In this document: piece by piece, positions 2-31,006 of the stretch
Numbering within the stretch: the stretch's first letter is position 1
Layout: each line of letters opens with the position of its first letter
Made by a program: the position numbers and the translations under genes
From: Alkanindiges illinoisensis DSM 15370
GTDB taxonomy: Bacteria > Pseudomonadota > Gammaproteobacteria > Pseudomonadales > Moraxellaceae
Direction: 5' to 3'
Assembly: GCF_000619845.1 (NCBI RefSeq)
Contig: NZ_JHUX01000009.1
Span: 30,001-62,000 of the forward strand
Length of the DNA: 32,000 bases
Notes under the pieces: generated by a model
The model's database searches: none
Seen by the model: the letters and a program-made list of their open reading frames with translations, nothing else
What the model was told of the DNA's origin: nothing

Positions 2-559
2 GCATTTATCCAGCAATTCAAGAAAAAACAGGCGCAGCAGCGTGAGGCTATTCCAAAATTACTCGACTGGCCACAATTTCTAAAACAGCAGGCCTTAAAG
101 GGTGATGAGCTTGCCGTTGAAAGCTTGCGTAAACGGGCTAAGGATAATTTTAAGCTCTATGACAACCAGATTCTAGGCTTGCCGGAAAAGACGTTTATTT
201 ACCATTCCTTAAAACCAGAAGTGAGAAAAAACGGCTCTATCGTATACCAGCTTCGGGATGGGGGTAGCATTGTTGACCGGGAAGCGGATTTACAGGTCGA
301 GCAGATTACCCAGCCAGCCGCATTTTTAGCCCTGACAATGGCCAAGGATAAGTTTGGCGCGCGCCCGTTAGAAATTAATGGCAGTGATGATTTTAAAAAT
401 GCACTGATTGAGGCAGCCGTAGAGCACCGTTTAAATGTCACATTTGCCAATCAGGATATGGAAAAAATACGCACCCGCAAAATGGGTGAGCTTGCCAAAC
501 AACCGCCACAACAATCAAATCAACAAGATGAAGCAATAAAACGAGGTAAATCAAGATGA
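2..559 (+). CDS. Conjugative relaxase, C-terminal fragment (5' end outside the window)
   Basis: The reading frame is open from base 2 (AFIQQFKKKQAQQREAIPKLLDWPQF...), so the TTG at 125 in the ORF track is probably internal. The stop TGA at 557-559 overlaps the ATG of the coupling-protein gene (ATGA). Its position upstream of traG-traF matches the IncP Tra1 order traI-traG-traF. No catalytic relaxase motif lies inside the window, so the call rests on synteny. Confidence 0.45.
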   Translation, partial: AFIQQFKKKQAQQREAIPKLLDWPQFLKQQALKGDELAVESLRKRAKDNFKLYDNQILGLPEKTFIYHSLKPEVRKNGSIVYQLRDGGSIVDREADLQVEQITQPAAFLALTMAKDKFGARPLEINGSDDFKNALIEAAVEHRLNVTFANQDMEKIRTRKMGELAKQPPQQSNQQDEAIKRGKSR

Positions 560-2475
560 AAGACTTAGAAGGTCAGAATAAGCGTATTTCAGCACCCCTG
601 GTTTATTTAATGGGTATGCTGTTTTTAATTTTTTCTTTTATGGTGGTTGGTAGTGTGGCCACACAAAAGATGGTGACTATTTTCAATCATCATCCTGCCC
701 TGGGCAAACCGCTGGTTGGCTCACTGTATGCCCCCTATAGGTTTTTAGTCTGGTATTTACAGTATAACGTCCCCGTTGGTCAGGGTTTACGGCCAAAACT
801 GGATTTGGTGATCATTTGTGTCCTGATTGCGGAAGGCCTGCTATTTCTGGTTACAGTCTTTACCATTGGCCTGATTACCAAGTCATCACGCAAGAATAAG
901 GATATTCATGGATCGGCACGCTGGGCTGAGTTTGACGAGCTGCCGGATATGGGCTTATTACCGCAAAAGGGTAAAAAAGGCGAGGGCGTTTATGTTGGCG
1001 CAATCCGCGATAAACAAGGACGTTTGCATTATTTACGGCACAATGGCCCTGAGCATGTGATTGGTATTGCACCAACCCGTTCGGGTAAAGGTGTAGGCCT
1101 TGTGGTTCCAACGACCTTATCCTGGCCGCATTCGATGCTGATCAGTGATATGAAAGGCGAGTTATGGGCAATGACGTCAGGCTGGCGCAGCCAGTATGCC
1201 AATAATATCTGCATTAAGTTTGACCCGGCTGCTGAACATGGCAGTGCCAGTTTTAATCCACTGGCCGAGATTCGCTTGGGGACACCGTATGAAGTCAGTG
1301 ACACACAGAATCTTGTCACGATTCTGGTTGATCCCGAAGGGAAGGGCTTAAATGACCACTGGTCTAAGACCGGTAGCGCCTTACTGGTTGGTGTGATCCT
1401 GTATACCCTGTACCGGGTAAAGGAAGAAACCGGCGGTATTGCGAGCCTTGGTGAAGTGGCCATGACCATTTCAGACCCAAGCCAGCCGATTGATGAGCTT
1501 TGGAATGCCATGCTGTTTAACCAGTATGGTGAAAATGGAGCAGCACATATTAATATTGCGTCACCAGCGCGCGATATGCAGAACACGCCTGAAGAAGAAC
1601 GTGGCTCGATTATTTCAACAGCGAGATCCTTTTTAACCCTCTACCGTGATCCGATTGTTGAGAAAAACACCAAATACAGTGACTTTACCGTTTCAGACCT
1701 GATGGATGCGGATAAACCGGTTTCCTTATACCTTGTAGTACGCCCAGGGGATAAAGACCGGTTAAAACCATTAATTCGCCTGATGCTGACCCAGATTCTA
1801 CGGGTACTGATCCGCGAGGAAATGAAAATAGGTGCTGATGGTGCAGCTAAAGCAGCCCATAAACACCGGCTACTGATGATGCTGGATGAATTCCCAGGCT
1901 TTGGCCGCTTGAAAGTGTTTGAAGATGCACTGCCGTATATTGCTGGTTATGGCATCAAGGCCTACCTGATAGCCCAGGATATTGAACAGTTACGTGCCAG
2001 TGATGCGTATGGCCGTGAGGAAACCATTTCTGCAAATTGCCATGTGCGTATTGCCTATGCACCCAATAAACTGGAAACCGCAGAATGGCTTTCTAAAATG
2101 TCTGGCCAGAAAACCCAGCATTCTGAAGAAATCTCAACCAGTGGCAACCGGTTTGGTGCCGTCATGGGCAATGTTAACCGGACATTTCATTCGTTTGCGC
2201 GTCCCCTGTTAACCCCAGATGAATGCTTACGCCTAAAAGCCCCCAAGAAAAGCCCGGATGGACTTAAAATTGTAGAATCCGGAGATTTACTGGTATTTGT
2301 CGCGGGTAACAATCCGGTCTATGGCGAACAATCCCTATTCTTTATTGACCCGACGTTTCAAAAGCGGGTTAAGGTGCCTGCCTTAAAAGAATCCCAGATC
2401 ATCCGGCCGCGTGCTGGTACTCAGCAAACCGCACATGATGCCGTTGATGAGTTTGTCATGGGTGAGGGGACATGA
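556..2475 (+). CDS. traG: Type IV secretion coupling protein (TraG/VirD4 family)
   Basis: 639-aa ORF with N-terminal TM helices (LVYLMGMLFLIFSFMVVGSVA; VIICVLIAEGLLFLVTVFTIGLI). It has a Walker A-like motif (GIAPTRSGKGVGLVVPT) and a Walker B-like motif (HRLLMMLDEF), typical of TraG/VirD4 T4CPs. ATGA overlaps occur with both neighbouring genes. Confidence 0.9.
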   Translation: MKDLEGQNKRISAPLVYLMGMLFLIFSFMVVGSVATQKMVTIFNHHPALGKPLVGSLYAPYRFLVWYLQYNVPVGQGLRPKLDLVIICVLIAEGLLFLVTVFTIGLITKSSRKNKDIHGSARWAEFDELPDMGLLPQKGKKGEGVYVGAIRDKQGRLHYLRHNGPEHVIGIAPTRSGKGVGLVVPTTLSWPHSMLISDMKGELWAMTSGWRSQYANNICIKFDPAAEHGSASFNPLAEIRLGTPYEVSDTQNLVTILVDPEGKGLNDHWSKTGSALLVGVILYTLYRVKEETGGIASLGEVAMTISDPSQPIDELWNAMLFNQYGENGAAHINIASPARDMQNTPEEERGSIISTARSFLTLYRDPIVEKNTKYSDFTVSDLMDADKPVSLYLVVRPGDKDRLKPLIRLMLTQILRVLIREEMKIGADGAAKAAHKHRLLMMLDEFPGFGRLKVFEDALPYIAGYGIKAYLIAQDIEQLRASDAYGREETISANCHVRIAYAPNKLETAEWLSKMSGQKTQHSEEISTSGNRFGAVMGNVNRTFHSFARPLLTPDECLRLKAPKKSPDGLKIVESGDLLVFVAGNNPVYGEQSLFFIDPTFQKRVKVPALKESQIIRPRAGTQQTAHDAVDEFVMGEGT

Positions 2476-3718: not shown

Positions 3719-3937
3719 ATGCCAATGCCTAAAGACCAAAAATTTGATACTGAACTTTTAGATACACAAATGCAGGAACCGGTTATCACCAGTGACCAGA
3801 ATATGCTGGGTGTTCCGGGTGTACTGGTAGAATTTGACCCGGATGAAGCGGATGCGTGGGGTGCAGTGGCCAGTGATCCCCGTGAAGTGGCAAGTGCTTG
3901 GGAAGATGCAATTGCAGATAGTGGGGAGCAGCCATGA
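3719..3937 (+). CDS. Small acidic hypothetical protein (72 aa)
   Basis: The ORF has a 4-nt ATGA overlap with the downstream ArdC-primase gene, suggesting translational coupling. It is strongly acidic (DPDEADAWGAVASDPREVASAWEDAIADSGE). I recognise no family. Confidence 0.4.
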   Translation: MPMPKDQKFDTELLDTQMQEPVITSDQNMLGVPGVLVEFDPDEADAWGAVASDPREVASAWEDAIADSGEQP

Positions 3938-6900
3938 AAAAAGAGTATGTTGATGAGCTGGCCAGCCGACTAATTGAGCAGATTAAAAGCAATACCGCAC
4001 CCTGGCAAAAACCCTGGCAGCCTGGTGTACCCAATGCCAGTTTGCCGATCAATGTAGTAACCGCTAAACCCTATAATGGCATGAACCTGATTAACCTTAT
4101 GTCCAAGGCCGAATATCAGGGTTATGACGATCCGCGCTGGATGACCTATAAGCAGGCACAAGGCTTAGGTGGCCAGGTTAAAAAGGGTGAAAAAGGCACA
4201 TCAATTCATTACTGGAAATTTTTTGATGAAAAAGTTATCAAGGATGAAAATAATAAGCCAGTACTGGATGAACACGGAAAACCCAAAAAAGTAAGAATCC
4301 AGCTTGAGCGCCCCCAGGTATTTTTTGCGACGGTCTTTAATGCCAATCAGGTTGACGGGCTGCCCCCACTGACACAAACCATTCCATTAAAGGAAGAATG
4401 GGCGCGTCACCAGCAAGCCGAACAGATTTTAAATGCGTCCGGTGTACCGATCCGGCATCTTAGTGGTGATAAGGCCTACTATTCTCCAGGTTTAGACAGA
4501 ATCACCATGCCAGAGCGGCAGCAATTTGATAGTGGCGATAAATATTATGCAACAGCCTTGCATGAGCTTGGCCATGCGACTGGCCATCCCAGCCGGTTAA
4601 ATCGGGATTTAACCGGTGGCTTTGGCAGTGAGAGTTACGCCAAAGAGGAGTTACGCGCTGAAATTGCTTCCATGATGATCGGTCAGGAGTTGCAGATTGG
4701 CCATGACCCCGGCCAGCATGTTGCTTATCTGCAAAGCTGGGTAAAGGTGCTTGAAAATGACGCCAAGGAAATTTTCAGGGCAGCACGTGATGCTGAGCAA
4801 ATTACCAAGTTTGTCATGGCATTCCAGCAACAGCAGCAACAGACCCAGACTGAAGATCAGTCCATACTTTCGTTAACGAAAATTGATCAGGCTTACCAGC
4901 CAAGTAATACCCCCAACCTGACCTCGCCATTACAGGCCTGGCAACTTCTGGAACAGGCTGCCAAAAGCAGGGGATATACTGCAAAACTTGATATTGAAGA
5001 AAACCCGGACAATATTGCCTTATCCAAAATCAAGGTCAATTATTTTAACGACAGTGGCATCCTGCCTTTTTCAAACACCATTGGCGGGAATGGCTTTGTC
5101 CGGGCAATCGAAAATAATCAATTCCTGCCCTACAACACCAATATCGCGGAAGTCATTCCACCTATCCTGACCGACATGATAGACCGGTATGAAAACCGGC
5201 TAAAACCGGTTAACCCGATTGATACCAATTTACTAGATGAGTTTGCCACCCATAAGGCCAACCATCCGGGTTTGTCGAATCCACTGGATTCATGGAATCA
5301 CATTAGCCAGTATGCTCAAAACATGGGCTACCGTGCCGATGTCAGCAGAAACCCGGATACCAGCGACGGCGCATCCCCCTACCTGATCGAATATTACGAC
5401 CAAGACCGGAAAACCGGCGTGCAGTCCCTGATGGAAGTGGACGGCAAAGTTTTAACGCAATTTGAGCAGGTACGAACCCAGGGTACAGGTTACACGTCAG
5501 ATGAAGTCTGGCAGCGGGACAGTTTAAGGGCGGCATTGCAAAAGGACTTTGACCAGAAAATCACCCAGCTTGCCAAAGTATCTAACGATGAGCGCAACCA
5601 GTCATTATTGGCAGGCCTGACCAAACTGGCCGAACTGAATAAACAGGGTGAATTTTACCAGTCAGAAAATGCACCCTATCGTCAAAGTATCCTGGATAAC
5701 CTGATCCGGGAAAATTTTGATAATCCTAAATTTACTGGTATTTCACTGCCGCATACCGAGGGTGGCCATATCCTGATTGAGAAATCAGCCAAAGCAGCAG
5801 GCCAGTGGCAGGTTACGATCTTCGACAGTGCAGGAGAACCAATCCGGGATAATGGGGCATACGACAAGCGAGAGGCCCTAGAGACGTTCTTTAGCGGCGT
5901 TCACATTGAGGCATCGGTTGCCGGTTTGAGCCAGCGGGAAAAAATCTATTTAGATGTACCCTACCATGAGAAAAATGAGGTGAAAGGGTTAGGGGCAAAA
6001 TGGGATAAAAAAGAAAAGGCTTGGTATATTATGAGCGATCAAAATAATGTGTCATTTAATAAATGGATAGCATCGGACATTAAGCCTGAAGCAACCAATA
6101 CCATTAATCCTGAACCTAATCCGGCCAGCAGCCAGAAGGTTTATCTAACCGTTCCGTTTGCCGATAAGGATAGTGTCAAGGAACTGGGCGCAAAATGGGA
6201 TAGAAAGGAAAAAGCCTGGTATATCGCTGCCGATACCAGCCAAGAGCCATTTAGCAAATGGTTGCCTGACGATAATGACAATACCTTACTCATCACTGTA
6301 CCGGTACTACCGGTTGAGTTAAAAGAAAATACCAGTGATCAAAATGTTTTTCTGGCCGTTCCTTATGAGGAACGTGACGCTGCCAAAGAGTGTGGTGCCA
6401 GATGGGACAATGAACAAAAATTGTGGTATGCCCCTGAAGGCACCGATTTAACGCCACTTCAGAGTTGGCTACCTGAAAACCAGCCCTATACTGACCATCA
6501 TGCTCATGTGGACTTACCACATCAGCAAGTGGCTGATCCGCGCGTTGAATTTGCCGCTGCCTTACGTGAAGCCGGTTTAGTGATTGAGGGCGAACCCCAG
6601 ATGGACGGCAAGTTGCAACGTGTCCGGGTGGAAGGCGATACATCATCAGAGCTAAGTGGAGCCTATAAAGGTCATTTAGATGGACGGCCAGCCGGTTATA
6701 TCAAGAATTTTAGAACTGGCCTTGAGCAAAAATGGAAATCAACCGGCAAGCTGGATGGAGCTGTCAACACGGCCAGGCTACGTGCTGAAGCTGCCCAGCG
6801 TCGCCAGAATAATGCGACCCAGCAAGAACATTTATATGAGCAGGTTGCAGAAAAAGCTGAACTGATTATGGATTTTGCCGAACCGTGTATTACCCATCGC

Positions 6901-7725
6901 TATTTACAGGAAAAAGATGTTTTACCACATGGCTTAAAAATAGTACCTGAAGGTAATCAGCAACTGGCTGATAAAGGCATCCTGATCGGCAATGACTGGA
7001 AGCAGTCCAAAGAACTTCGTGAAGCCCATCCTGATGCAATCGTTTTAACTAAAGGTGATCTTATTGTTCCGGCATACGATGCACATGGAAAGTTATGGAC
7101 GATGCAGACAATTGGCCATAATGGGTTTAAGTCATTTTTAAAAGACGGCAAGAAATCAGGAAACTTCTTTTTGCTTGGCCAGCCTGAGCCGGGCAAACCG
7201 ATCATTGCTGCCGAGGGTTTTGCAACCGCTGCAACCCTACGTGAAGTCACCAATCAGGTGGTTGCGGTTGCCTTTGATTCAGGAAACCTTAATGCAGTGG
7301 CCATGACCCTGCGTGAGCAATATGAGCCGGGTAAGCTGTATATTGCTGCCGACAATGATCATGTCAAGGAAGCAGAGCGCCGGGCAGCCGGGCATACCCA
7401 TAATTTAAACGTGGGCATTGAAAAGGCACAGCAGGCCGCTGAAGCCAGCCAGGGTTTTGTGCTTACACCTAAGTTTAGGGCAGATGATAAGGGTACGGAC
7501 TGGAACGACTTAAAGCGTAGTCAGGGCGTTGAAGTGGTAAAAACCCAGTTACGGCAAGCACTGGCCATTGCCCAGCTTCAGGAAAATAAGGCAAAAGTGG
7601 TAGAACGTAGTATTGCCGCCACTCATCAACAGGTTGAGAGCAATAGTGTAGAGCCGGAAAATTTAGCTAAAAAGCTGATCCGGCATCCTGAGCAAAAGCA
7701 AAATAGGGGATTAAGACTGTCTTAG
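3934..7725 (+). CDS. Polyvalent ArdC-N / zincin metallopeptidase / repeat / Toprim primase protein (TraC-like)
   Basis: 1263 aa. The N-terminus has ArdC-type ssDNA-binding motifs (APWQKPWQPG...PYNGMNLINL...RWMTYKQAQGLGGQVKKGEKG). A zincin HExxH follows (ALHELGHATGH ... EELRAEIAS), then a poly-Q linker. Next come two copies of a motif (SPLQAWQLLEQAAKSRGYTA / NPLDSWNHISQYAQNMGYRA). Three tandem repeats of about 45 aa follow (...GAKWD+KEKAWYI...). The C-terminus is primase/Toprim-like (DGKLQRVRVEGD...GAYKGHLDGRPAGYIKNFRTG; IIAAEGFATAATL; YIAADNDH). Confidence 0.85.
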   Translation: MKKEYVDELASRLIEQIKSNTAPWQKPWQPGVPNASLPINVVTAKPYNGMNLINLMSKAEYQGYDDPRWMTYKQAQGLGGQVKKGEKGTSIHYWKFFDEKVIKDENNKPVLDEHGKPKKVRIQLERPQVFFATVFNANQVDGLPPLTQTIPLKEEWARHQQAEQILNASGVPIRHLSGDKAYYSPGLDRITMPERQQFDSGDKYYATALHELGHATGHPSRLNRDLTGGFGSESYAKEELRAEIASMMIGQELQIGHDPGQHVAYLQSWVKVLENDAKEIFRAARDAEQITKFVMAFQQQQQQTQTEDQSILSLTKIDQAYQPSNTPNLTSPLQAWQLLEQAAKSRGYTAKLDIEENPDNIALSKIKVNYFNDSGILPFSNTIGGNGFVRAIENNQFLPYNTNIAEVIPPILTDMIDRYENRLKPVNPIDTNLLDEFATHKANHPGLSNPLDSWNHISQYAQNMGYRADVSRNPDTSDGASPYLIEYYDQDRKTGVQSLMEVDGKVLTQFEQVRTQGTGYTSDEVWQRDSLRAALQKDFDQKITQLAKVSNDERNQSLLAGLTKLAELNKQGEFYQSENAPYRQSILDNLIRENFDNPKFTGISLPHTEGGHILIEKSAKAAGQWQVTIFDSAGEPIRDNGAYDKREALETFFSGVHIEASVAGLSQREKIYLDVPYHEKNEVKGLGAKWDKKEKAWYIMSDQNNVSFNKWIASDIKPEATNTINPEPNPASSQKVYLTVPFADKDSVKELGAKWDRKEKAWYIAADTSQEPFSKWLPDDNDNTLLITVPVLPVELKENTSDQNVFLAVPYEERDAAKECGARWDNEQKLWYAPEGTDLTPLQSWLPENQPYTDHHAHVDLPHQQVADPRVEFAAALREAGLVIEGEPQMDGKLQRVRVEGDTSSELSGAYKGHLDGRPAGYIKNFRTGLEQKWKSTGKLDGAVNTARLRAEAAQRRQNNATQQEHLYEQVAEKAELIMDFAEPCITHRYLQEKDVLPHGLKIVPEGNQQLADKGILIGNDWKQSKELREAHPDAIVLTKGDLIVPAYDAHGKLWTMQTIGHNGFKSFLKDGKKSGNFFLLGQPEPGKPIIAAEGFATAATLREVTNQVVAVAFDSGNLNAVAMTLREQYEPGKLYIAADNDHVKEAERRAAGHTHNLNVGIEKAQQAAEASQGFVLTPKFRADDKGTDWNDLKRSQGVEVVKTQLRQALAIAQLQENKAKVVERSIAATHQQVESNSVEPENLAKKLIRHPEQKQNRGLRLS
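5941..6480 (+). repeat. Three tandem in-frame protein-domain repeats inside the polyvalent primase gene
   Basis: The three units are IYLDVPYHEKNEVKGLGAKWDKKEKAWYIMSD..FNKW, VYLTVPFADKDSVKELGAKWDRKEKAWYIAAD..FSKW and VFLAVPYEERDAAKECGARWDNEQKLWYAPEG..LQSW. They start at about 5941, 6133 and 6340. They resemble the small domain often fused to plasmid primases and topoisomerases; a DUF5710-type assignment is from memory and unverified. Confidence 0.7.
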
Positions 7726-24717: not shown

Positions 24718-25410
24718 CTAAGCTTTAATTGCTATAGTATTGTTTGAATCGGCCTGAATATCTGACAGCTTCTTTTCTTCAATTTCCTGTTGCTTGATCT
24801 TTTTGATATAACGCCAGATGGTTTGATAATGAACCTGATATTTCGCCGTTAATTCTTTTGGTGTTAAAACATCCTTATCATTTTTCAGCTCAGCGAGTTG
24901 AGCCTCGGTTAAAGCCGGTTTTCTACCTTTATATTTTCCTTTACGCTTGGCCACTGCAATCCCTTCACGCTGGGCTTCCCGGATTAAAGCCCGTTTGAAT
25001 TCTGCCACAGCGCCCACCACATGAAACAGGAATTTATCCATAGGGTTGTCGCTATTTGCAGTGAAAGTGATATTTTCCTTATTAAATTTTACAGTGACCC
25101 CTTTGCCATTTAAGGTTTTAACTATATTGATCAGGTTTTCCAAGTCACGCGCCATGCGATCCATACTATGGACTAGTACCGTATCACCTTCGCGCACATA
25201 CTCAATGAGTTCATCCAGTGCCGGTCTATTTTTCTTGGCTCCACTGATTTTGTCAGTAAAAACCTTATCCAGCTTAAAACCGGCCAGTTGCCGTTCCGTA
25301 TTCTGGTCTACACTGGATACCCGGATATATCCCACTGTCTGGGTTTTAGCATTGTGATTGATGACTTCCTCAATATCGACGGTTTGATCATCCTGGGCGT
25401 GCTTGACCAT
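24718..25410 (-). CDS. Small serine recombinase (resolvase/invertase family)
   Basis: 230 aa. The catalytic N-terminal block is VGYIRVSSVDQNTERQ ... GDTVLVHSMDRMARD. A C-terminal HTH is present (TPKELTAKYQVHYQTIWRYIKK). A leader of about 26 aa precedes the catalytic block. Confidence 0.9.
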   Translation of the reverse strand: MVKHAQDDQTVDIEEVINHNAKTQTVGYIRVSSVDQNTERQLAGFKLDKVFTDKISGAKKNRPALDELIEYVREGDTVLVHSMDRMARDLENLINIVKTLNGKGVTVKFNKENITFTANSDNPMDKFLFHVVGAVAEFKRALIREAQREGIAVAKRKGKYKGRKPALTEAQLAELKNDKDVLTPKELTAKYQVHYQTIWRYIKKIKQQEIEEKKLSDIQADSNNTIAIKA

Positions 25411-25412
25411 AA

Positions 25413-25958
25413 TTAATCTATTTCCTCAAAGTAATAGCCCTGAGCTTTATGGTGACCATCGAATTCGTTGTCATAGCCAAACTGCCACTGTAGATTCTTT
25501 TTTGAAAATGCCCGGTGAGGATTGGAGCTATTTTTTTCTATACAGGCTTTTGCGCCTGCGTTGTAGGTCAGATCAATAATATAGCTATGGCCGTCAATAA
25601 TGATTTCTCGCGGGATAGGCTTTGACGCTTGTTTCTTTAAAATACGATAGGTGAGTTTTTCTAAATCACTGACCTTAATACCTAGATAATCAAAAATTTC
25701 TTGCCTGGCATTATATTCAAGATGAATGACGGATATGCAATCCATCAGGGTACGGGGCTGTAGCTCCTTTAGGAACTGTAGATTAAAAAGGCATTTACTT
25801 CCTTTATAAAAGTTGACGATGAAAAGCCCGGCTATGTAGGCCTCTCTGCTTTCTCCCTGGGCTAAATCGTATAACCGTTCTAATGCCGGTATGCCTGCAT
25901 CATGTGAGGTTTTCTCATAAAGCTTTAGAAAGCTAGGGCTATTGTAATAAGCAGTCAT
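25413..25958 (-). CDS. Hypothetical two-part protein (181 aa) heading the recombinase operon
   Basis: The ORF ends 2 nt before the recombinase ATG. The N-terminal part (ALERLYDLAQGESREAYIAGLFIVNFY...FNLQFLKEL...DCISVIHL) resembles a conserved hypothetical domain I associate with plasmids and ICEs. The C-terminal part (YNAGAKACIEKNSSNPHRAFSKKNLQWQFGY) has an Rmf/CrpP-like pattern. Both assignments are unverified. Confidence 0.55.
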   Translation of the reverse strand: MTAYYNSPSFLKLYEKTSHDAGIPALERLYDLAQGESREAYIAGLFIVNFYKGSKCLFNLQFLKELQPRTLMDCISVIHLEYNARQEIFDYLGIKVSDLEKLTYRILKKQASKPIPREIIIDGHSYIIDLTYNAGAKACIEKNSSNPHRAFSKKNLQWQFGYDNEFDGHHKAQGYYFEEID

Positions 25959-26134
25959 CAGTAAATACCTTTAATCATCGTATCTTGTCCGGCATATCGC
26001 ATTTTGCATCGTTCTCATCTATTTAAATTATGACAATGATCAGAATTTGGTGTTTAGCCCCAATATGGGTATTAATTGCACATAATATAACACCAAAACA
26101 GGGACTTCAAAGTTAATACATAACTAAATTAAAA

Positions 26135-26201
26135 TACAACCCTATTGTTATATGTTTTTTAATGTTGCATTTTATAACAATAGGGTACACCCTATTGTTA
26201 G
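26135..26201. promoter_or_regulatory. Three copies of a CCCTATTGTTA half-site (res/operator-like) in the divergent control region
   Basis: TACAACCCTATTGTTATA lies at 26135-26152. Its inverted copy TATAACAATAGGG lies at 26173-26185. TACACCCTATTGTTAG lies at 26186-26201. The last two form a 12-4-12 dyad (ATAACAATAGGG-TACA-CCCTATTGTTAG, 26174-26201). Confidence 0.6.
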
Positions 26202-26222
26202 TATTTAAGGGTATGATATAAT
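26195..26222 (+). promoter_or_regulatory. Sigma70-type promoter with extended -10 for the zeta-like operon
   Basis: The -35 is TTGTTA (26195-26200), followed by a 16-bp spacer. The extended -10 is TGATATAAT (26214-26222). The -35 is embedded in the third repeat copy. The promoter lies 33 nt upstream of the GTG start at 26255. Confidence 0.55.
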
Positions 26223-26254
26223 TGTTGTCAAGAAAAATACAAACAGGTTAGACA

Positions 26255-27520
26255 GTGGATTTAGCAATTAATAAGTTGGCGCTTGGCGGCGATGAGGAAA
26301 AACTAAAAGTTCAAGCGGCAGTGATTGACCGGGCAAAGAAAGACGGCCAGAAAATTATTGACCAGTATAAACAGCATCCTAGTACCTTCGACGGTCGCTA
26401 TATTTGTTCAGATATGTTTAAGGAAATGTTTCCTGAATTTTCCCAGTCACCGGCCACACGCAACAAGTTCAATAATGCAGTGCATAACACAGCGGCAACA
26501 CTGGCCGCAGAGCATTTTAAGCAAACCATGCGTCAGACTGGAGCTGAAGGACAGGACACCGTTATTTTTCTGACCGGTTCACCGGGGGCAGGTAAAACGT
26601 CCAGTGTGGTCAGTAACATGCAGCTACCTGCAAACGTCAAGGCCGTATATGAGGGCCAGCTCGTCAATGCAACAGATAAAAGCACGCTCGACAAGTTTCA
26701 GCAGGCCATCAACAGCGGTGCAAAGATTGAAGTGATTGCTGTTCATGCACTACCGGAGAATGCGTTAGAGAATACCTTTAAACGGTTTAATGATCCGAAT
26801 GATGGACGGGGAGCCAGTATCGGGACAATGGCCAGGATTCAGGGTAATACGGCTGAAGGACTAGAAAAATTACATGATTTTTTTGGTGACAGGATTAATC
26901 TAAGGGTATTAGATGTTAGACAGCAAGGTAATGCAGTACCCTTAAAAGGTTGGCAACACTTAAATGTACTTAAATCAGAGGGTAACGAGCATGACATTAA
27001 GCAGCGACTTGAAAAACACTTACTCAAGCATTGGCAACAAGGAGCAATTACAAATGAATGTTTTGAACAAGCCGCCTGTGGAAAGGCAGAATTCCACAGA
27101 CTCACACGAGGAACAGATGGACAATCTGCTGGACACAATGGCGGCCAACTTGAATCGCATGAGCCAGGACGAAAATTACCGCAAGGAAGTGGCAGCCAGG
27201 GCAACAACCCCACAAGACAACAGCAAGAAGCCATCTTAAAGCTTAGAGCCGTTGCCTTACACGTTGGTGCAGACGTCAGGCCGCAAATGCCTGGCGAAAC
27301 CAAGGGTAAGATCGTGGCGGAAACCAGTGGATTTATCTTGCAGCGTTTAGGCGAGGGCAGTAAGTTTTTTATGGTTCACGATAAAGCATCACTGGCCACT
27401 GTTCCCCGGATCGACGATGAGGTAAAAATTCTCCATCGCAAAGAACCCAATCAAAAGGCCAGGGTAGAGCTGGTCAATCAAACTCAATCACAGAGCCAGG
27501 GTAAAGGCCGTACCCGATAA
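26255..27520 (+). CDS. Zeta-toxin-like P-loop kinase with a low-complexity linker and a conserved C-terminal module
   Basis: 421 aa with a GTG start. The zeta/PezT-like N-terminus has the Asp-containing ICSDMFKEMFPEF motif followed by VIFLTGSPGAGKTS (Walker A at 26576-26599). A G/Q/S-rich linker follows. The C-terminal approx. 57 aa (27290-27478) are about 50 percent identical by hand alignment to the C-terminus of the 29030-30070 protein. The tail is basic (GKGRTR). Confidence 0.75.
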   Translation: MDLAINKLALGGDEEKLKVQAAVIDRAKKDGQKIIDQYKQHPSTFDGRYICSDMFKEMFPEFSQSPATRNKFNNAVHNTAATLAAEHFKQTMRQTGAEGQDTVIFLTGSPGAGKTSSVVSNMQLPANVKAVYEGQLVNATDKSTLDKFQQAINSGAKIEVIAVHALPENALENTFKRFNDPNDGRGASIGTMARIQGNTAEGLEKLHDFFGDRINLRVLDVRQQGNAVPLKGWQHLNVLKSEGNEHDIKQRLEKHLLKHWQQGAITNECFEQAACGKAEFHRLTRGTDGQSAGHNGGQLESHEPGRKLPQGSGSQGNNPTRQQQEAILKLRAVALHVGADVRPQMPGETKGKIVAETSGFILQRLGEGSKFFMVHDKASLATVPRIDDEVKILHRKEPNQKARVELVNQTQSQSQGKGRTR

Positions 27521-27539
27521 TTTTTAGAATGGTAAAATA

Positions 27540-28496
27540 ATGAGTGCATCTAATATTGTTGAAAATTTTGCGGTGACTTCAATTTGTTATAGTCCTGATG
27601 GTGAGCGACTGGCCACAGCCGGTTACTCTACAACGGAACTTAATATCTGGCAGCTTGGCCAGAATCCTCAGAAAATTGCCACACTTGATTTAGCTGATAC
27701 TCAAAATCCGGTAAATTCAATTAGCTGGAGCCAAGATTATTTATCAGCCATTGCCAATACTGCCCAGGAAATTTTTATCTTTGATCAGCAATTTAACAAG
27801 GTAAAGACCTTAACCAAAGGCATTAGCCGCGAGATTCTGGTTAATCAGTTTAACCACAATGGCCGTGAGCTGCTGGTGGCCACCAGACGACCATTAAACC
27901 AGAGCCTAAAAAAACAGGGCTTAACAGCCGTTCCTGATATTGTGATTTACACCACGCCAAACTGGAATAGCCAGGCCTTTGAAAGTGGCTTTTACATCTT
28001 TGGGGCGAGCTGGTTAAGCGATCTAGTGGTGGTTGCCGGTAATGACCGCGCGAATGAACACCAGTTTTCAGTGGAAGTTTTTAATCCGGCCACTGGCCAG
28101 CAACATAAAATCAGTCTGGGTGCGCCTGCTGATGAAGCACGCCTAGCGGTATTTAAAGATAAGCATAAGATTGGCGTCACCTTTAAAGTGAATAATGACA
28201 GTGACGGTACGTTTGAAAGTCATTTTTATGTACTGCATTATAATAAGGACACCGGCAACTTTCAGGTTTTGCATTCAGCAACCCTGTCCAGTCCTGACCA
28301 GTTCGTTAATGTGGCCTTTACCACTGACTATACCATTTTAGACACTTATATTAATGGCCAGTCCAGGGCTGAAAGTCTGGACGCTTTAGGCAATATACAG
28401 CATGAGAAAACCTTCCAGTATCCAACCACTTATGGCTTGGCCACTTATGATGTGATTACGGCCATTGCTGTTGCTAATGAAGTGATATTTATCTAA
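27540..28496 (+). CDS. WD40-like beta-propeller protein, cytoplasmic
   Basis: 318 aa with no signal peptide. It has one clear WD-like blade (VTSICYSPDGERLATAGYSTTELNIWQL). Repeated beta-strand-rich units follow (NSISWSQDYLSAIA..IFIFD; ELLVATRR; DLVVVAGND..SVEVFN). It starts 19 nt after the kinase gene. Confidence 0.6.
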   Translation: MSASNIVENFAVTSICYSPDGERLATAGYSTTELNIWQLGQNPQKIATLDLADTQNPVNSISWSQDYLSAIANTAQEIFIFDQQFNKVKTLTKGISREILVNQFNHNGRELLVATRRPLNQSLKKQGLTAVPDIVIYTTPNWNSQAFESGFYIFGASWLSDLVVVAGNDRANEHQFSVEVFNPATGQQHKISLGAPADEARLAVFKDKHKIGVTFKVNNDSDGTFESHFYVLHYNKDTGNFQVLHSATLSSPDQFVNVAFTTDYTILDTYINGQSRAESLDALGNIQHEKTFQYPTTYGLATYDVITAIAVANEVIFI

Positions 28497-28542
28497 GGCC
28501 TATAGCAGCGATGATTCACCCTTTCACGGTTTAAGTCTATTT

Positions 28543-28956
28543 ATGAATAACCTAATGATTAAGCTGTTGTTATTGCTTGGATGTACCCTAAGCTTAAATT
28601 TATACGCTAAGGATAATTGGGTTAAGCTCTGGCTCTCCAAGGGTTTATTGGCTTATATGTCTGTAGATCATATCTATCCGCAAGATTCAAATGCTAAGCT
28701 GGTCAATGCCTGGATCAAGTTTGAACAAGTGAACAATAAAGATTATCTTTTGATGCTCTATCAGTTCGACTGCACAGAAAAGTCATTCGATATCTTGCAG
28801 GTAGATAAATACACTGCTGATAATGAATTTCAAAGCCGCATATCTTCCAAGCCAGAAGATAAATCATTGAAAACTTTTTTAAGTCCGAATGATAAGGCCT
28901 TAGAAAACTCCTACAATATTGCTTGCGATTACGCTAAAGCTCATCCGCTACCCTAG
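28543..28956 (+). CDS. Small exported protein, possible lipoprotein
   Basis: 137 aa with the signal peptide MNNLMIKLLLLLGCTLSLNLYA. It has a possible lipobox (LLGC), or alternatively an SPase I site after LYA. Two conserved-looking Cys residues are present (FDCTEKSF ... NIACDY). The pattern resembles the surface-adhesin protein E-like fold; this is from memory and unverified. Confidence 0.6.
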   Translation: MNNLMIKLLLLLGCTLSLNLYAKDNWVKLWLSKGLLAYMSVDHIYPQDSNAKLVNAWIKFEQVNNKDYLLMLYQFDCTEKSFDILQVDKYTADNEFQSRISSKPEDKSLKTFLSPNDKALENSYNIACDYAKAHPLP

Positions 28957-29029
28957 AATATTTTTATTACCTAACTTTCTTCAGGGTTAGTTACTTCATA
29001 ACTGAAATTAATTAAAACGGTTAAATTAG

Positions 29030-30070
29030 ATGGCCAATATCAAGCAGCTCATTGAAGCCAACAAGAACAGCTATGCGCGTCTACGCAATCCCGGATCAGA
29101 CACGCTCGATGAGCTGAAGAATTATAATGTGGTCAAGTATGCAATGGATGAGCGTAGTGATCATGGCGGACTGGCCTATTACAATCCTGAAGACAAAACC
29201 CTGATTGTCGCGCACCGGGGCAGTGAAACCCGGCGTGACTGGCTAGTGACTGATGTTCAGATTGCAGTGGGTGTTAAGGAAACCCTGGCAGATATGGCCG
29301 CCATGCGCTTTACGGATTCTGTGATTGAAAAGCTGGATCGCAATGGCCATGATATTGATTTGATCGTACAGACTGGCCATTCCAAGGGTGGCCGGGAAAG
29401 CCAGATGTGCGTTAAAAAGCTGGTAGAAACCACAGATATTGAATGTATCGGCATGACGTTCAATGCTACCCGGATTCATGGCAAGCAGAAAAATAAGGAT
29501 ATAGATTATCCTAGTGTAAATTTGAGGGTAACTGGGGGATCAGCCTTTTCAACTGATGTGGTCAGCTCGTTTGGCCAGCAGCTTGGCCATAATGTTGATG
29601 TAACCCTGCCCAACGTAAAAAACTTTATCCAGGCGCATAAGCTGTCCACCTTTGACAGTATGATTGAAACCTATCCTGAGTTTAGCAATATGGACATTAA
29701 GGACGTGATGCGTGAAATTAAAAAGGGTGTCCAGCTTGCGTCCATCGAGCAGGGCTACCCTGGGCAACAGCAGAACAACAGTCCACAGGATGTAAAAAGC
29801 CTGATTAATCACTTAACCGGTACGCCGGAAATCCGCACGGCCACACCAGGGACCGTCACCAAAGGGCAGATTGTGGCTCACACCCAAACCCAGGTTGTTC
29901 AGCAGCTTGGTGAGAACAGCAAATTTTTCATGCTACATGATAAGGCCACCTTATCGCGTATTCCTGATATTGGGACGAATGTTCAAATTAAGCACAACAA
30001 GAATTCAAGCCTGAAGGCCGGTGTAGAACATCTGGCACCGCAGCAATTTCCCAAAAAAATGACGAGATAA
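29030..30070 (+). CDS. Class-3-lipase-like alpha/beta hydrolase with the same C-terminal module as the zeta-like kinase
   Basis: 346 aa. It has the lipase_3-like block LIVAHRGSETRRDWLVTDVQ and the nucleophile elbow TGHSKGG (29375-29392). A Q-rich linker follows. The C-terminal module is GQIVAHTQTQVVQQLGENSKFFMLHDKATLSRIPDIGTNVQIKHNKNSSLKAGVEHL (29846-30034). The tail is basic (PKKMTR). Confidence 0.7.
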   Translation: MANIKQLIEANKNSYARLRNPGSDTLDELKNYNVVKYAMDERSDHGGLAYYNPEDKTLIVAHRGSETRRDWLVTDVQIAVGVKETLADMAAMRFTDSVIEKLDRNGHDIDLIVQTGHSKGGRESQMCVKKLVETTDIECIGMTFNATRIHGKQKNKDIDYPSVNLRVTGGSAFSTDVVSSFGQQLGHNVDVTLPNVKNFIQAHKLSTFDSMIETYPEFSNMDIKDVMREIKKGVQLASIEQGYPGQQQNNSPQDVKSLINHLTGTPEIRTATPGTVTKGQIVAHTQTQVVQQLGENSKFFMLHDKATLSRIPDIGTNVQIKHNKNSSLKAGVEHLAPQQFPKKMTR

Positions 30071-30322
30071 AGCAACCTAAGATCCGCACTAGATTTTCAT
30101 TGAGCTTAATGTAAAGTTTTTCGTAGAGCGCGGTATTACTTTGATTTATTAGCAGCTTGGAAAATATTCTTTTTGTGATTAATAAAATTTCAATGCATTG
30201 CTTCAAATTAGCGTTTCTCTTTAAGCATTGATCTAAGCTTGATTAATGATATTCATGCTTATTATTAATTAGGCTTAATACAAGTAGGCAGCCAGCATAC
30301 TCTGGGGTAGGCAAAACCAGCG

Positions 30323-30985
30323 CTATGGTTTTTTGGCTATCGTTTCAAGAGCGGTTTGATTGTCGCTTAGCCAAGAGGCTGTTATCTCACAACGAAATCT
30401 CACCAGTTCTATTATTTTATGATAATCATCAGCTAATGCTCGATTAAAAATAGGTTCATGATGGGCAATTCGATTTCTCAAATATCGAATTTGATCAAGA
30501 TACTGGTAAATCATTGTGCGTCGTTCTGTTATGGTTTTTGCTACATCCATATTGGGTAGTACGCTAGTGAGATAAGGAATCCATAGACGTTCATCATAAC
30601 GTTGAGTAAACATTTTTTGCCAGAACACAAATTTAAGTTCCGGGATAACTTTCCCTGTAGCCTGAGTACTTCGTCGTGCATTCATCAGATCCCTGCGTGG
30701 ACTGTACCCAATGCGCGGGTCGGGTAAGCTTCTTTCAAAAACTGTTGCCCAAGGCCACTGGGTTCCATAAACAGATTCTAAAGCAGCGGCAACAGCATTA
30801 CGGATCACTACCTCACAAAGATGTAACGGCGTTAGTAACGCTCCGGACACTTGTGCATTCCATGCATAAAGGTGCAAAGCTGCCAGCTCATCAACATTTG
30901 CTGTCCCAATGGCCGTTTCATAGGTTGCAATTCGCGCTGGAGAGATTGCTGTTTTTATGGCATTAATCATTGCTTGGTTTGACAT
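30323..30985 (-). CDS. Abi_2-family (AbiD/AbiF-like, HEPN-type) abortive-infection protein
   Basis: 220 aa. Family hallmarks are ISPARIATYE, LHLYAWNAQVSGALLTPLHLCEVVIRNAV, ELKFVFWQKMF and the Rx4-6H HEPN motif within IRYLRNRIAHHEPIF. Confidence 0.8.
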   Translation of the reverse strand: MSNQAMINAIKTAISPARIATYETAIGTANVDELAALHLYAWNAQVSGALLTPLHLCEVVIRNAVAAALESVYGTQWPWATVFERSLPDPRIGYSPRRDLMNARRSTQATGKVIPELKFVFWQKMFTQRYDERLWIPYLTSVLPNMDVAKTITERRTMIYQYLDQIRYLRNRIAHHEPIFNRALADDYHKIIELVRFRCEITASWLSDNQTALETIAKKP

Positions 30986-31006
30986 GTGTAGTATTAACTG
31001 TATAAT
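30979..31006 (+). promoter_or_regulatory. Consensus sigma70 promoter reading away from the abi start codon
   Basis: TTGACA (30979-30984), a 16-bp spacer, then TATAAT (31001-31006). The -35 overlaps the abi ATG (complement of 30983-30985). Confidence 0.55.

Follow-up and report, generated by a model that had tools for sequence, protein, structure and literature searches.

A KfrB-family beta-barrel at the C-termini of two unrelated predicted enzymes from an IncP-like conjugative element of Alkanindiges illinoisensis

Two predicted enzymes with a common C-terminal module

A stretch of 32,000 nucleotides from Alkanindiges illinoisensis DSM 15370 (contig NZ_JHUX01000009.1, positions 30,001 to 62,000; the whole stretch is called the window and its first letter is position 1) is part of an IncP-like conjugative element (MOB_P, with a P-type type IV secretion system, T4SS). 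Two of its open reading frames (ORFs), here called ORF A and ORF B, encode a putative zeta-type kinase and a putative class-3 lipase, and both proteins end in a small beta-barrel of the KfrB family followed by a short basic tail (Table 1). Neither ORF received a name from PADLOC or NCBIfam.

Residues 5-274 of ORF A align with ng_zeta1 of Neisseria gonorrhoeae (PDB 6EPH; E=5.8e-48), and Pfam Zeta_toxin matches the protein with 30.6 bits (cut-off 22.3). The Walker A motif is kept (GSPGAGKTS aligned with GIPGSGKTS of 6EPH), as are the catalytic Asp (CSDMFKE aligned with CADTFKE) and, in the same alignment, the GRGASIG motif. On these motifs ORF A is predicted to be a zeta kinase of the ng_zeta1 type with its catalytic motifs intact. 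ng_zeta1 phosphorylates UDP-activated cell-wall precursors (PMC5923241). On the gonococcal plasmid (L019) epsilon1 ends 7 bp ahead of zeta1. No plausible ORF for an epsilon-type antitoxin was found in the 297-bp region upstream of ORF A, where the longest plus-strand ORF has 28 amino acids (aa). In this respect the stretch ahead of the seemingly intact zeta kinase (window 25959-26254) differs from the gonococcal plasmid. Small ORFs precede the genes for zeta kinases with a KfrB domain (Zeta-KfrB) in L015, L019 and L020; the one in L015 (84 aa) had no match in the PDB. A word-indexed homologue search with the ORF A module gave three near-identical matches. One variant of ORF A, P0021 (312 aa; on a 28-kb Logan contig), has an in-frame deletion of the kinase core after the Walker A motif; its linker, KfrB barrel and tail are kept at about 96% identity to ORF A.

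ORF B is a class-3-type lipase by motif and predicted fold. Its AlphaFold2 (AF2) model matches fungal class-3 lipases and feruloyl esterases in Foldseek (1UZA, 1TGL, 6A0W and others; E 1e-7 to 1e-5, probability 1.0), and S118, D176 and H203, which are invariant in 10 homologues, probably form an intact Ser-Asp-His triad. Sequence families recognise the protein less clearly: Pfam Mbeg1-like matches with 13.1 bits, below its cut-off of 21.1, close homologues have a precomputed match to PF26363 ('Phospholipase-like') that is marked weak, and plasmid homologues are annotated as Mbeg1-like or DUF2974. Two homologues of the lipase domain, P0012 and P0013 (587 aa), end not in KfrB but in another, longer C-terminal region; the lipase domain has therefore evidently been combined with alternative C-terminal modules.

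The C-terminal peptides picked out in the original prediction are exact translations of 27290-27478 (ORF A) and 29846-30034 (ORF B). When the full proteins were compared by BLASTP, only the C-terminal region aligned (38 of 90 residues identical, 42%; E=7e-17) and the N-terminal parts were mutually unrelated, which bears out a common module on two otherwise unrelated enzymes and rules out a chance similarity. The core of 57 residues is ungapped, with 31 identities rather than the 29 or so first counted by hand. The alignment had been thought free of gaps from its first residue, but a one-residue indel is needed ahead of the core (PGE-TKG in ORF A, PGTVTKG in ORF B). The coding DNA of the two modules is identical in 123 of 234 columns (about 53%); the relationship is therefore old, and a recent duplication is rejected, in agreement with the original prediction. 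The Q/G/S-rich linkers ahead of the module, predicted to be disordered, and the basic tails behind it (..GKGRTR and ..PKKMTR) are as originally described.

Table 1. Features of the window, beginning with ORF A and ORF B
Feature	Position	Strand	Basis or remark
ORF A: zeta-type kinase (predicted), disordered linker, KfrB barrel, basic tail	26255..27520	+	421 aa; ORF list, 6EPH, Pfam
ORF A kinase domain (aa 5-274), ng_zeta1-like UDP-N-acetylglucosamine/UDP-N-acetylmuramic acid (UNAG/UNAM) kinase, predicted	26267..27076	+	alignment to 6EPH
ORF A Q/G/S-rich linker (aa 275-347)	27077..27295	+	sequence; module flank low-confidence in AF2
ORF A KfrB beta-barrel (aa 348-406)	27296..27472	+	five strands in AF2; Foldseek match to ng_zeta1
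ORF A basic tail, ..VNQTQSQSQGKGRTR	27473..27517	+	disordered in AF2
ORF B: class-3 lipase (predicted), linker, KfrB barrel, basic tail	29030..30070	+	346 aa; ORF list, Pfam
ORF B lipase domain (aa 1-240), GHSKGG nucleophile elbow	29030..29749	+	Foldseek; invariant residues
ORF B linker (aa 241-266)	29750..29827	+	residues 242-253 with predicted local distance difference test (pLDDT) <50
ORF B KfrB beta-barrel (aa 267-334)	29828..30031	+	AF2 strands 267-334
ORF B basic tail, ..LAPQQFPKKMTR	30032..30067	+	residues 338-346 pLDDT <50
TraI/MobA(P) relaxase, C-terminal part, end ..IKRGKSR	2..559	+	NCBIfam NF041893, E=5.8e-15
TraG-type coupling protein, no KfrB, acidic C-terminus ..DAVDEFVMGEGT	556..2475	+	Pfam T4SS-DNA_transf, E=2e-103
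TraC-like polyvalent protein (ArdC-N, MPTase, three DUF5710, Toprim), end ..QKQNRGLRLS	3934..7725	+	Pfam; 1263 aa
Resolvase and DUF7673 gene pair, divergent from ORF A	24718..25958	-	Pfam; flanks cassette in L001-L003 too
Operator-like repeats, three exact copies of ACCCTATTGTTA	26139..26222	+	upstream of ORF A
Beta-propeller-like protein, no signal peptide	27540..28496	+	318 aa; weak WD40/propeller Pfam matches
Lipoprotein-like ORF, lipobox LLGC	28543..28956	+	137 aa; between propeller and lipase genes; weak Adhesin_E match
Abi_2/HEPN-like gene	30323-30985	-	PADLOC family PD-T4-5, E=7e-17

The module belongs to the KfrB family

Pfam KfrB (PF18790; curated gathering cut-off 25 bits) matches ORF A with 32.7 bits (residues 350-394) and ORF B with 39.8 bits (residues 278-325), so that the similarity holds in a profile comparison and the name 'KfrB-like', tentatively put forward in the original prediction, is right. 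A hidden Markov model (HMM) built from modules like those of the window found KfrB of plasmid R751 (E=3.8e-13), its sole match with E<1 when 50 kb of R751 were scanned as six-frame ORFs. An AF2 model, for which a 16-sequence module alignment was the input, is a five-stranded beta-barrel (core pLDDT >90) with a short helical turn after strand 3 and a disordered tail, and the same barrel is present in the model of full-length ORF B.

The best match of this barrel in the PDB by Foldseek is the C-terminal domain of ng_zeta1 (6EPI/6EPG/6EPH; root-mean-square deviation (rmsd) 2.7 Å over 75 columns, probability 1.0), followed by barrels of the S1/OB (oligonucleotide/oligosaccharide-binding) type, namely S1, cold-shock, exosome and NusA OB domains. 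It is thus a small beta-barrel, as foreseen when it was first described as SH3-like, but its nearest folds are OB/S1-like and not classic SH3. A link in sequence to ng_zeta1 exists independently of the fold, since the module profile matches residues 321-384 of ng_zeta1 (E=9.6e-7). In addition, P0114 combines a precomputed KfrB match with an end-to-end alignment to ng_zeta1, and a GIY.L..A motif ahead of the domain is common to R751 KfrB and ng_zeta1. Direct phmmer searches of the PDB with either 101-aa module gave no match; the link to 6EPH required the family profile, the intermediate P0114 and Foldseek.

A crystal structure of the KfrB domain therefore already exists, as the 'OB-fold' C-terminal domain of ng_zeta1 (6EPH), where it was not recognised as such. 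That domain was called an OB fold of unknown function and was noted only in zeta toxins of the gonococcus and in one from Eikenella (PMC5923241). NCBI gives the label 'KfrB domain-containing protein' to the C-terminal half of zeta3, a gonococcal gene that is split; no paper discussing a 'KfrB domain' or PF18790 was found in the searchable literature. All four family features tested were found in the module, which is a bona fide five-stranded beta-barrel of the KfrB family.

Two known proteins come closest. KfrB of IncP-1 plasmids R751/RK2 (Upf54.8) belongs to the same family by Pfam and by reciprocal HMM match and, like ORF A and ORF B, has a basic tail (..KLTRGRSM) and is encoded in a conjugative plasmid backbone. 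However, it is a stand-alone protein of 115 aa from the kfrA-kfrB-kfrC partition-accessory operon, whereas in the window the domain is appended to the C-termini of two enzymes whose cassette is linked to a resolvase. ng_zeta1, from a conjugative plasmid (6EPG/6EPH/6EPI), has the two-domain plan of ORF A, with a kinase followed by a C-terminal barrel, and is likewise found on an IncP-like plasmid adjoining a resolvase. The two barrels are too diverged for direct pairwise detection, and ng_zeta1 has the upstream antitoxin epsilon1 that ORF A does not.

The Foldseek list also contains Bartonella Bep1 (4NPS) and BepA (5NH2), with rmsd 2.1-2.2 Å over about 60 residues; the full ORF B model matches 6EPG and Bep1 too, through its barrel. 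As the FIC domain is helical, the matched part of Bep1 and BepA is presumably their OB fold. Membership in other families of secretion domains was rejected. The module is not a BID domain because it is all-beta, and there was no BID match in the Pfam scan; it is not XVIPCD because no such family appeared among Pfam matches with E≤0.1 for either ORF. Conservation among modules lies in the hydrophobic core and in a Gly/His pattern, with no obvious basic surface.

KfrB on relaxases, primases, coupling proteins and toxin-like enzymes

Partners of the domain were sought both through the enzyme domains and through module profiles. KfrB was found C-terminal to zeta kinases of several lineages, Fic, a DUF676 esterase and a phosphoribosyltransferase (PRTase)-like domain, to an AbiEii nucleotidyltransferase adjoining TrbI-TrbM and, in two to three copies, to polyvalent proteins with ArdC-N and metallopeptidase (MPTase) domains. 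Zeta-KfrB genes also lie within F-type tra clusters, and another is found beside TrbF-TrbL together with a second KfrB protein. In most carriers the domain is at the C-terminus or a few residues from it. Many homologues of both the zeta and the lipase domain have no KfrB. An exhaustive profile search, biased in that the profile included the tail, gave 26 significant matches, one of them a false positive (P0133, an Fn3-repeat protein).

The domain is also carried by proteins of the transfer machinery. The TraI/MobA(P) relaxase of Cupriavidus basilensis pRK1-3 (L021 6159-8318) has a C-terminal KfrB (55.2 bits) and ends ..TQGRGR. Its domain order is Relaxase, TraI_middle, LPD7 and KfrB, with KfrB in the position held by TraI-like_C (PF22287) in the TraI proteins of R751 and the gonococcal plasmid. 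Comparison by hhalign did not support the IncP-1 TraI C-terminal domain (PF22287) itself as KfrB-like (probability 26% over 17 columns). In two Burkholderiaceae MOB_P plasmids KfrB ends a KorA-like repressor, a two-copy protein, an LPD7 protein and a DUF5710-Toprim primase, and the TraG/VirD4 coupling protein of the same two plasmids has a C-terminal KfrB (37.8 and 30.6 bits; L022 6275-8794 and L023 8194-10719).

In each of the long contexts the neighbouring genes include transfer genes of the P-type or F-type, and every context that could be judged is conjugative (window, L005, L009/L011, L015, L017, L019, L020, L021-L023 and R751). Comparisons of eight KfrB proteins with PHROG families and of the two-copy KfrB protein with phage genomes gave no match. 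The distribution is thus the reverse of one centred on loci that lack conjugation genes, the pattern that had been named beforehand as fatal to a role in transfer.

KfrB carriers resemble the polyvalent proteins (Iyer et al. 2017, PMC5512222), proposed to be delivered with DNA into the recipient, in that KfrB occurs with ArdC-N, MPTase-PolyVal, LPD7 and DUF5710. ORF A and ORF B differ from them in having two domains each, although both domain types occur in true polyvalent proteins elsewhere, and while polyvalent proteins occur in conjugative elements or phages, KfrB was found only in conjugative elements. The main text of PMC5512222 does not mention Kfr/KfrB, SH3, zeta toxin or lipase. In plasmids of Moraxella bovis and M. 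lincolnii (H13-H26) a kinase of the ng_zeta1 type lies inside genes annotated as zincin-like metallopeptidase or DUF5710 proteins; large TraC-like polyvalent proteins of these plasmids therefore include the zeta kinase itself among their modules.

Relaxases and KfrB proteins have the same type of tail

Most of the KfrB proteins retrieved end a few residues past the barrel in a basic stretch, usually with a terminal Arg. Comparison within single elements is less biased, and there the relaxase and the KfrB proteins have the same tail type. In the window TraI ends ..KRGKSR, the TraC-like protein ..NRGLRLS, ORF A ..GKGRTR and ORF B ..KKMTR, and a terminal Arg is found in only three of the 28 ORFs (TraI, ORF A and ORF B). 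R751 has ..SKGRSR in TraI and ..TRGRSM in KfrB. The gonococcal plasmid has ..VKGRHR in TraI, ..KKSISR in zeta1, ..KKTMKR in zeta3 and ..KKTLTR in KfrB; an Acinetobacter baumannii plasmid (described below) has ..KSKKR in TraI, ..VKMKR in the primase and ..TMLKR and ..KTKSR in its KfrB proteins. Among close homologues of ORF A the tail KGRTR is invariant and the residue before it varies (G/N/S), while ORF B homologues in L001-L003 end ..STKKMIR. A basic tail is lacking after the KfrB domain of the coupling protein but present on the other KfrB-ended proteins of those Burkholderiaceae plasmids (KorA-like, LPD7 and DUF5710-Toprim).

The conjugative element and the cassette

Besides the relaxase, coupling protein and TraC-like protein (Table 1), the transfer region encodes a TraF peptidase and a soluble lytic transglycosylase (SLT) by Pfam. 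Arsenic and metal resistance cargo lies downstream of the transfer genes. ORF A and ORF B belong to a cassette in the order resolvase (minus strand), DUF7673 (minus strand), ORF A, beta-propeller-like gene, lipoprotein-like ORF, ORF B and Abi/HEPN-like gene.

Upstream of ORF A, two copies of ACCCTATTGTTA form a perfect palindrome with 12-bp arms (26175-26200), the right arm of which overlaps the -35 hexamer of the best promoter-like site (26195-26222; TTGTTA-16-TATAAT, extended TG). Of the loci retrieved, only L001-L003 and L012 have the same arrangement of repeats and promoter, in each case ahead of their ORF A homologue. The repeats look like the operator of a repressor controlling the cassette.

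The propeller gene lies immediately upstream of the lipase-KfrB gene in L001-L003, in L012 and in the A. baumannii plasmid (L009), whose propeller protein (L009 19024-20004) is homologous to that of the window (E=8e-10). Cytoplasmic and beta-propeller-like, the protein is conserved across diverged elements and may inhibit the lipase or act as its partner. L001-L003 and L012 have no lipoprotein-like ORF between the two genes; the one in the window may be an unrelated insertion or a gene gained for an immunity-like function in the periplasm. The Abi_2/HEPN-like gene next to the cassette is likely, from its family match, to be an anti-phage defence gene. In the relative L002 the other flank of the cassette carries a CD-NTase and Cap15 of a cyclic-oligonucleotide-based anti-phage signalling system (CBASS).

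Minus the lipoprotein ORF, the cassette is found again in metagenomic contigs, where its flanks differ. It is also present in Alkanindiges hydrocarboniclasticus (module identity 92%), and a narrow-alignment search for related loci gave three Moraxellaceae loci. Positions 26000-31000 of the window had no megablast match among plasmids. The 54-kb OXA-23 plasmid of A. baumannii (L009/L011, NZ_KX118105.1), which has a full Trb/Tra set, repeats the layout of the cassette: a resolvase is followed by an operon that runs from a different KfrB-tagged protein to the propeller and lipase-KfrB genes. MOB-suite types this plasmid as 'non-mobilizable', which looks wrong because TrbB-TrbI, a TraI/MobA(P) relaxase, TraG, TraF and topoisomerase III are encoded.

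A possible role in recruitment and transfer

Because the domain is common to relaxase, primase, regulator, coupling protein and the partition-accessory protein KfrB, docking is the simplest reading of its function. KfrB would be a portable protein-protein docking module that brings its carrier enzyme into the relaxosome/coupling-protein complex of the plasmid, either by contact between KfrB domains or by way of a common hub, for example the Kfr proteins. The Arg-terminated basic tail may be the short positively charged signal typical of substrates of P-type T4SSs, in which case TraG would take over the zeta kinase and the lipase, and both would reach the recipient in the course of mating.

The suggestion that the module is a delivery, recruitment or relaxosome-tethering domain gains by comparison, since KfrB with a basic tail ends the TraI/MobA(P) relaxase and TraC-like primases and the relaxase of the window has a tail of this kind. 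The companion suggestion, that it marks cargo enzymes, suits the toxin-like carriers but not the coupling protein, the KorA-like repressor or KfrB, of which it is the core. With carriers such as these, a general docking module is likelier than a pure secretion signal. The chances that KfrB docks ORF A and ORF B at the transfer complex, with their translocation a likely sequel, appear evenly balanced; translocation proper of the two proteins is the more doubtful part.

Among T4SS effectors with a shared C-terminal domain, the XVIPCD effectors (X-Tfes) of the bacteria-killing T4SSs of Xanthomonadales have diverse toxic N-terminal enzymes, including lipases, and a common C-terminal domain that binds VirD4. 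Immunity genes are often adjacent to their genes. XVIPCD differs from the KfrB module in fold and size, and the element studied here is a conjugative plasmid or integrative and conjugative element, not a dedicated killing system.

BID offers a direct precedent. A conjugative T4SS secretes VbhT, in which FIC, OB and BID domains are followed by a positive tail, and a fusion of PezT to BID is encoded at the corresponding genetic location; further toxin-antitoxin toxins with short charged signals were predicted by the same authors (PMC5675462). BID with a positive tail is a bipartite signal common to relaxases and toxins (PMC6509941). KfrB proteins share with VbhT, the Bartonella effector proteins (Beps) and PezT-BID the succession of a toxin (Fic or zeta/PezT), a C-terminal module and a positively charged tail, and like BID the module is also present in relaxases and encoded beside genes for DNA transfer and replication (Dtr) and the T4SS. 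The same KfrB domain indeed ends a relaxase (pRK1-3 TraI) and several toxins. ORF A and ORF B have the basic tails, disordered in AF2, but no helical BID domain. That helical domain is the proven signal in BID systems, whereas the likeness of the KfrB barrel is to the OB fold connecting it to FIC, on which it superposes in Bep1 and BepA. Translocation has been shown for VbhT, whereas delivery of KfrB proteins is suggested by analogy. In beta- and gammaproteobacteria, KfrB plus tail may thus correspond to the BID domain and positive tail of VbhT and PezT-BID.

A still wider generalisation can be offered tentatively. KfrB barrel and Arg-terminated tail might together form a widespread, unrecognised recruitment or translocation module of beta/gamma-proteobacterial MOB_P systems, equivalent to BID or XVIPCD, that docks on the coupling protein (which itself bears KfrB in some plasmids) and defines the proteins injected at mating, namely relaxase, primase, anti-restriction proteins, repressors and toxin-like effectors. 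The OB fold of Bartonella FIC-OB-BID effectors and that of ng_zeta1 would then be the same module. This proposition is possible, although the balance is against it.

Several observations weigh against recruitment for transfer. Canonical KfrB is a plasmid-survival, partition-accessory protein, and Adamczyk et al. reportedly found in 2006 that it interacts with KfrA and KfrC. An interaction between KfrC and TraG was not detected for RK2 or R751, although KfrC of plasmid RA3 binds VirD4 (PMC8124265), and ng_zeta1 is an ordinary toxin of a toxin-antitoxin pair (PMC5923241). KfrB on the coupling protein and on the KorA-like repressor does not suit a pure secretion signal. The tail is ambiguous as well: its survey is biased because the search profile included it, basic C-termini are common in R751, and the Zeta-KfrB proteins encoded in F-type tra clusters have ..KDGL or ..RDLGM as their last residues. 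Where polyvalent proteins contain internal KfrB copies, these too are followed by ..SQxRxRSR, and the basic stretch may therefore belong to the domain. Finally, P0137, a KfrB protein of 166 aa, has an apparent N-terminal signal peptide, a misfit with docking in the cytoplasm.

Some of these observations are what would be expected if the module instead tethered its carriers to the segrosome. The domain would bind the plasmid-bound scaffold of KfrA, KfrC and KorB as stand-alone KfrB does, and the enzymes would be addiction or post-segregational toxins, or accessory enzymes, that are not translocated. A KorA-like repressor carries KfrB, ng_zeta1 is a working toxin of a toxin-antitoxin system (PMC5923241), and the cassette adjoins a resolvase, a stability function. 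This alternative is weakened because the complete A. baumannii plasmid, which has two KfrB-tagged proteins, has no annotated KfrA, KfrB or KfrC. KfrB also resides on relaxase, primase and coupling protein, which are transfer and not partition proteins, and an addiction toxin would sit uneasily with the missing epsilon antitoxin ORF ahead of ORF A. Tethering to the segrosome is thus unlikely, though it is the strongest of the alternatives.

The OB/S1-like fold raises the question of whether barrel and basic tail bind single-stranded DNA, DNA of the origin of transfer (oriT) or RNA and so bring the enzymes to plasmid DNA or to the strand being transferred. The Foldseek neighbours that follow ng_zeta1, the DNA-handling carriers (relaxase, primase, ArdC-N and KorA) and the tandem copies, which resemble S1 repeats, are all compatible with such a function. 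Against this, every S1/OB match has E >0.03 and a large rmsd, no known nucleic-acid-binding motif was identified, conservation does not trace an obvious basic surface, and no basic tail follows the coupling protein's copy. Binding of nucleic acid is accordingly rated improbable.

Docking without export would serve a different end if the enzymes acted in the donor. Held by KfrB on the cytoplasmic side of the coupling protein or T4SS, the kinase (acting on peptidoglycan precursors) and the lipase (acting on membrane lipid) would help to build or open the mating channel. Relaxase, primase and coupling protein as carriers are equally good evidence for this as for recruitment, both enzymes have envelope-related substrates (PMC5923241 for the kinase; Foldseek for the lipase), and the transfer region already encodes envelope remodellers in the SLT transglycosylase and TraF peptidase. 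It is nevertheless distinctly improbable, as the partners of KfrB elsewhere (Fic, AbiEii, PRTase and ArdC/MPTase) are not envelope enzymes and the relaxase-like tail would be left unexplained.

An antitoxin-docking, immunity-docking or autoinhibitory domain of toxin-antitoxin-type enzymes, for which the crystallisation of ng_zeta1 with an extended antitoxin epsilon1 (PMC5923241), the small ORFs ahead of Zeta-KfrB genes and the conserved propeller gene ahead of lipase-KfrB might be cited, is very improbable given KfrB on non-toxins (relaxase, primase, coupling protein, KorA and stand-alone KfrB) and the many homologues of both enzyme domains that do without it.

Implications

That KfrB is a domain linked to conjugative elements is already on record. 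To judge from the searchable literature, four points are new: KfrB is the 'OB fold' of ng_zeta1; it resembles the OB fold in FIC-OB-BID effectors; a relaxase, primases and a coupling protein carry it; and relaxase and KfrB proteins have a tail type in common. Together they turn the original prediction into a testable hypothesis of recruitment. If the module only tethers its carriers to the partition complex, the result is more ordinary, yet it explains why unrelated enzymes have a common C-terminus.

How conjugative T4SSs choose their protein substrates is poorly defined beyond the translocation signal (TSA) domains of relaxases, BID, XVIPCD and short charged tails, and the plasmid proteins that enter the recipient with the DNA are equally ill-defined. 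A small, recognisable domain on relaxase, primase, anti-restriction polyvalent proteins, coupling protein and toxin-like enzymes offers an experimental handle on both. It predicts a list of candidate co-transferred proteins in plasmids of Acinetobacter, Neisseria and Burkholderia that carry resistance genes. The unexplained C-terminal domain in the structure of ng_zeta1, recently treated as a drug-relevant toxin (PMC11964940), gains a family and a role that can be tested.

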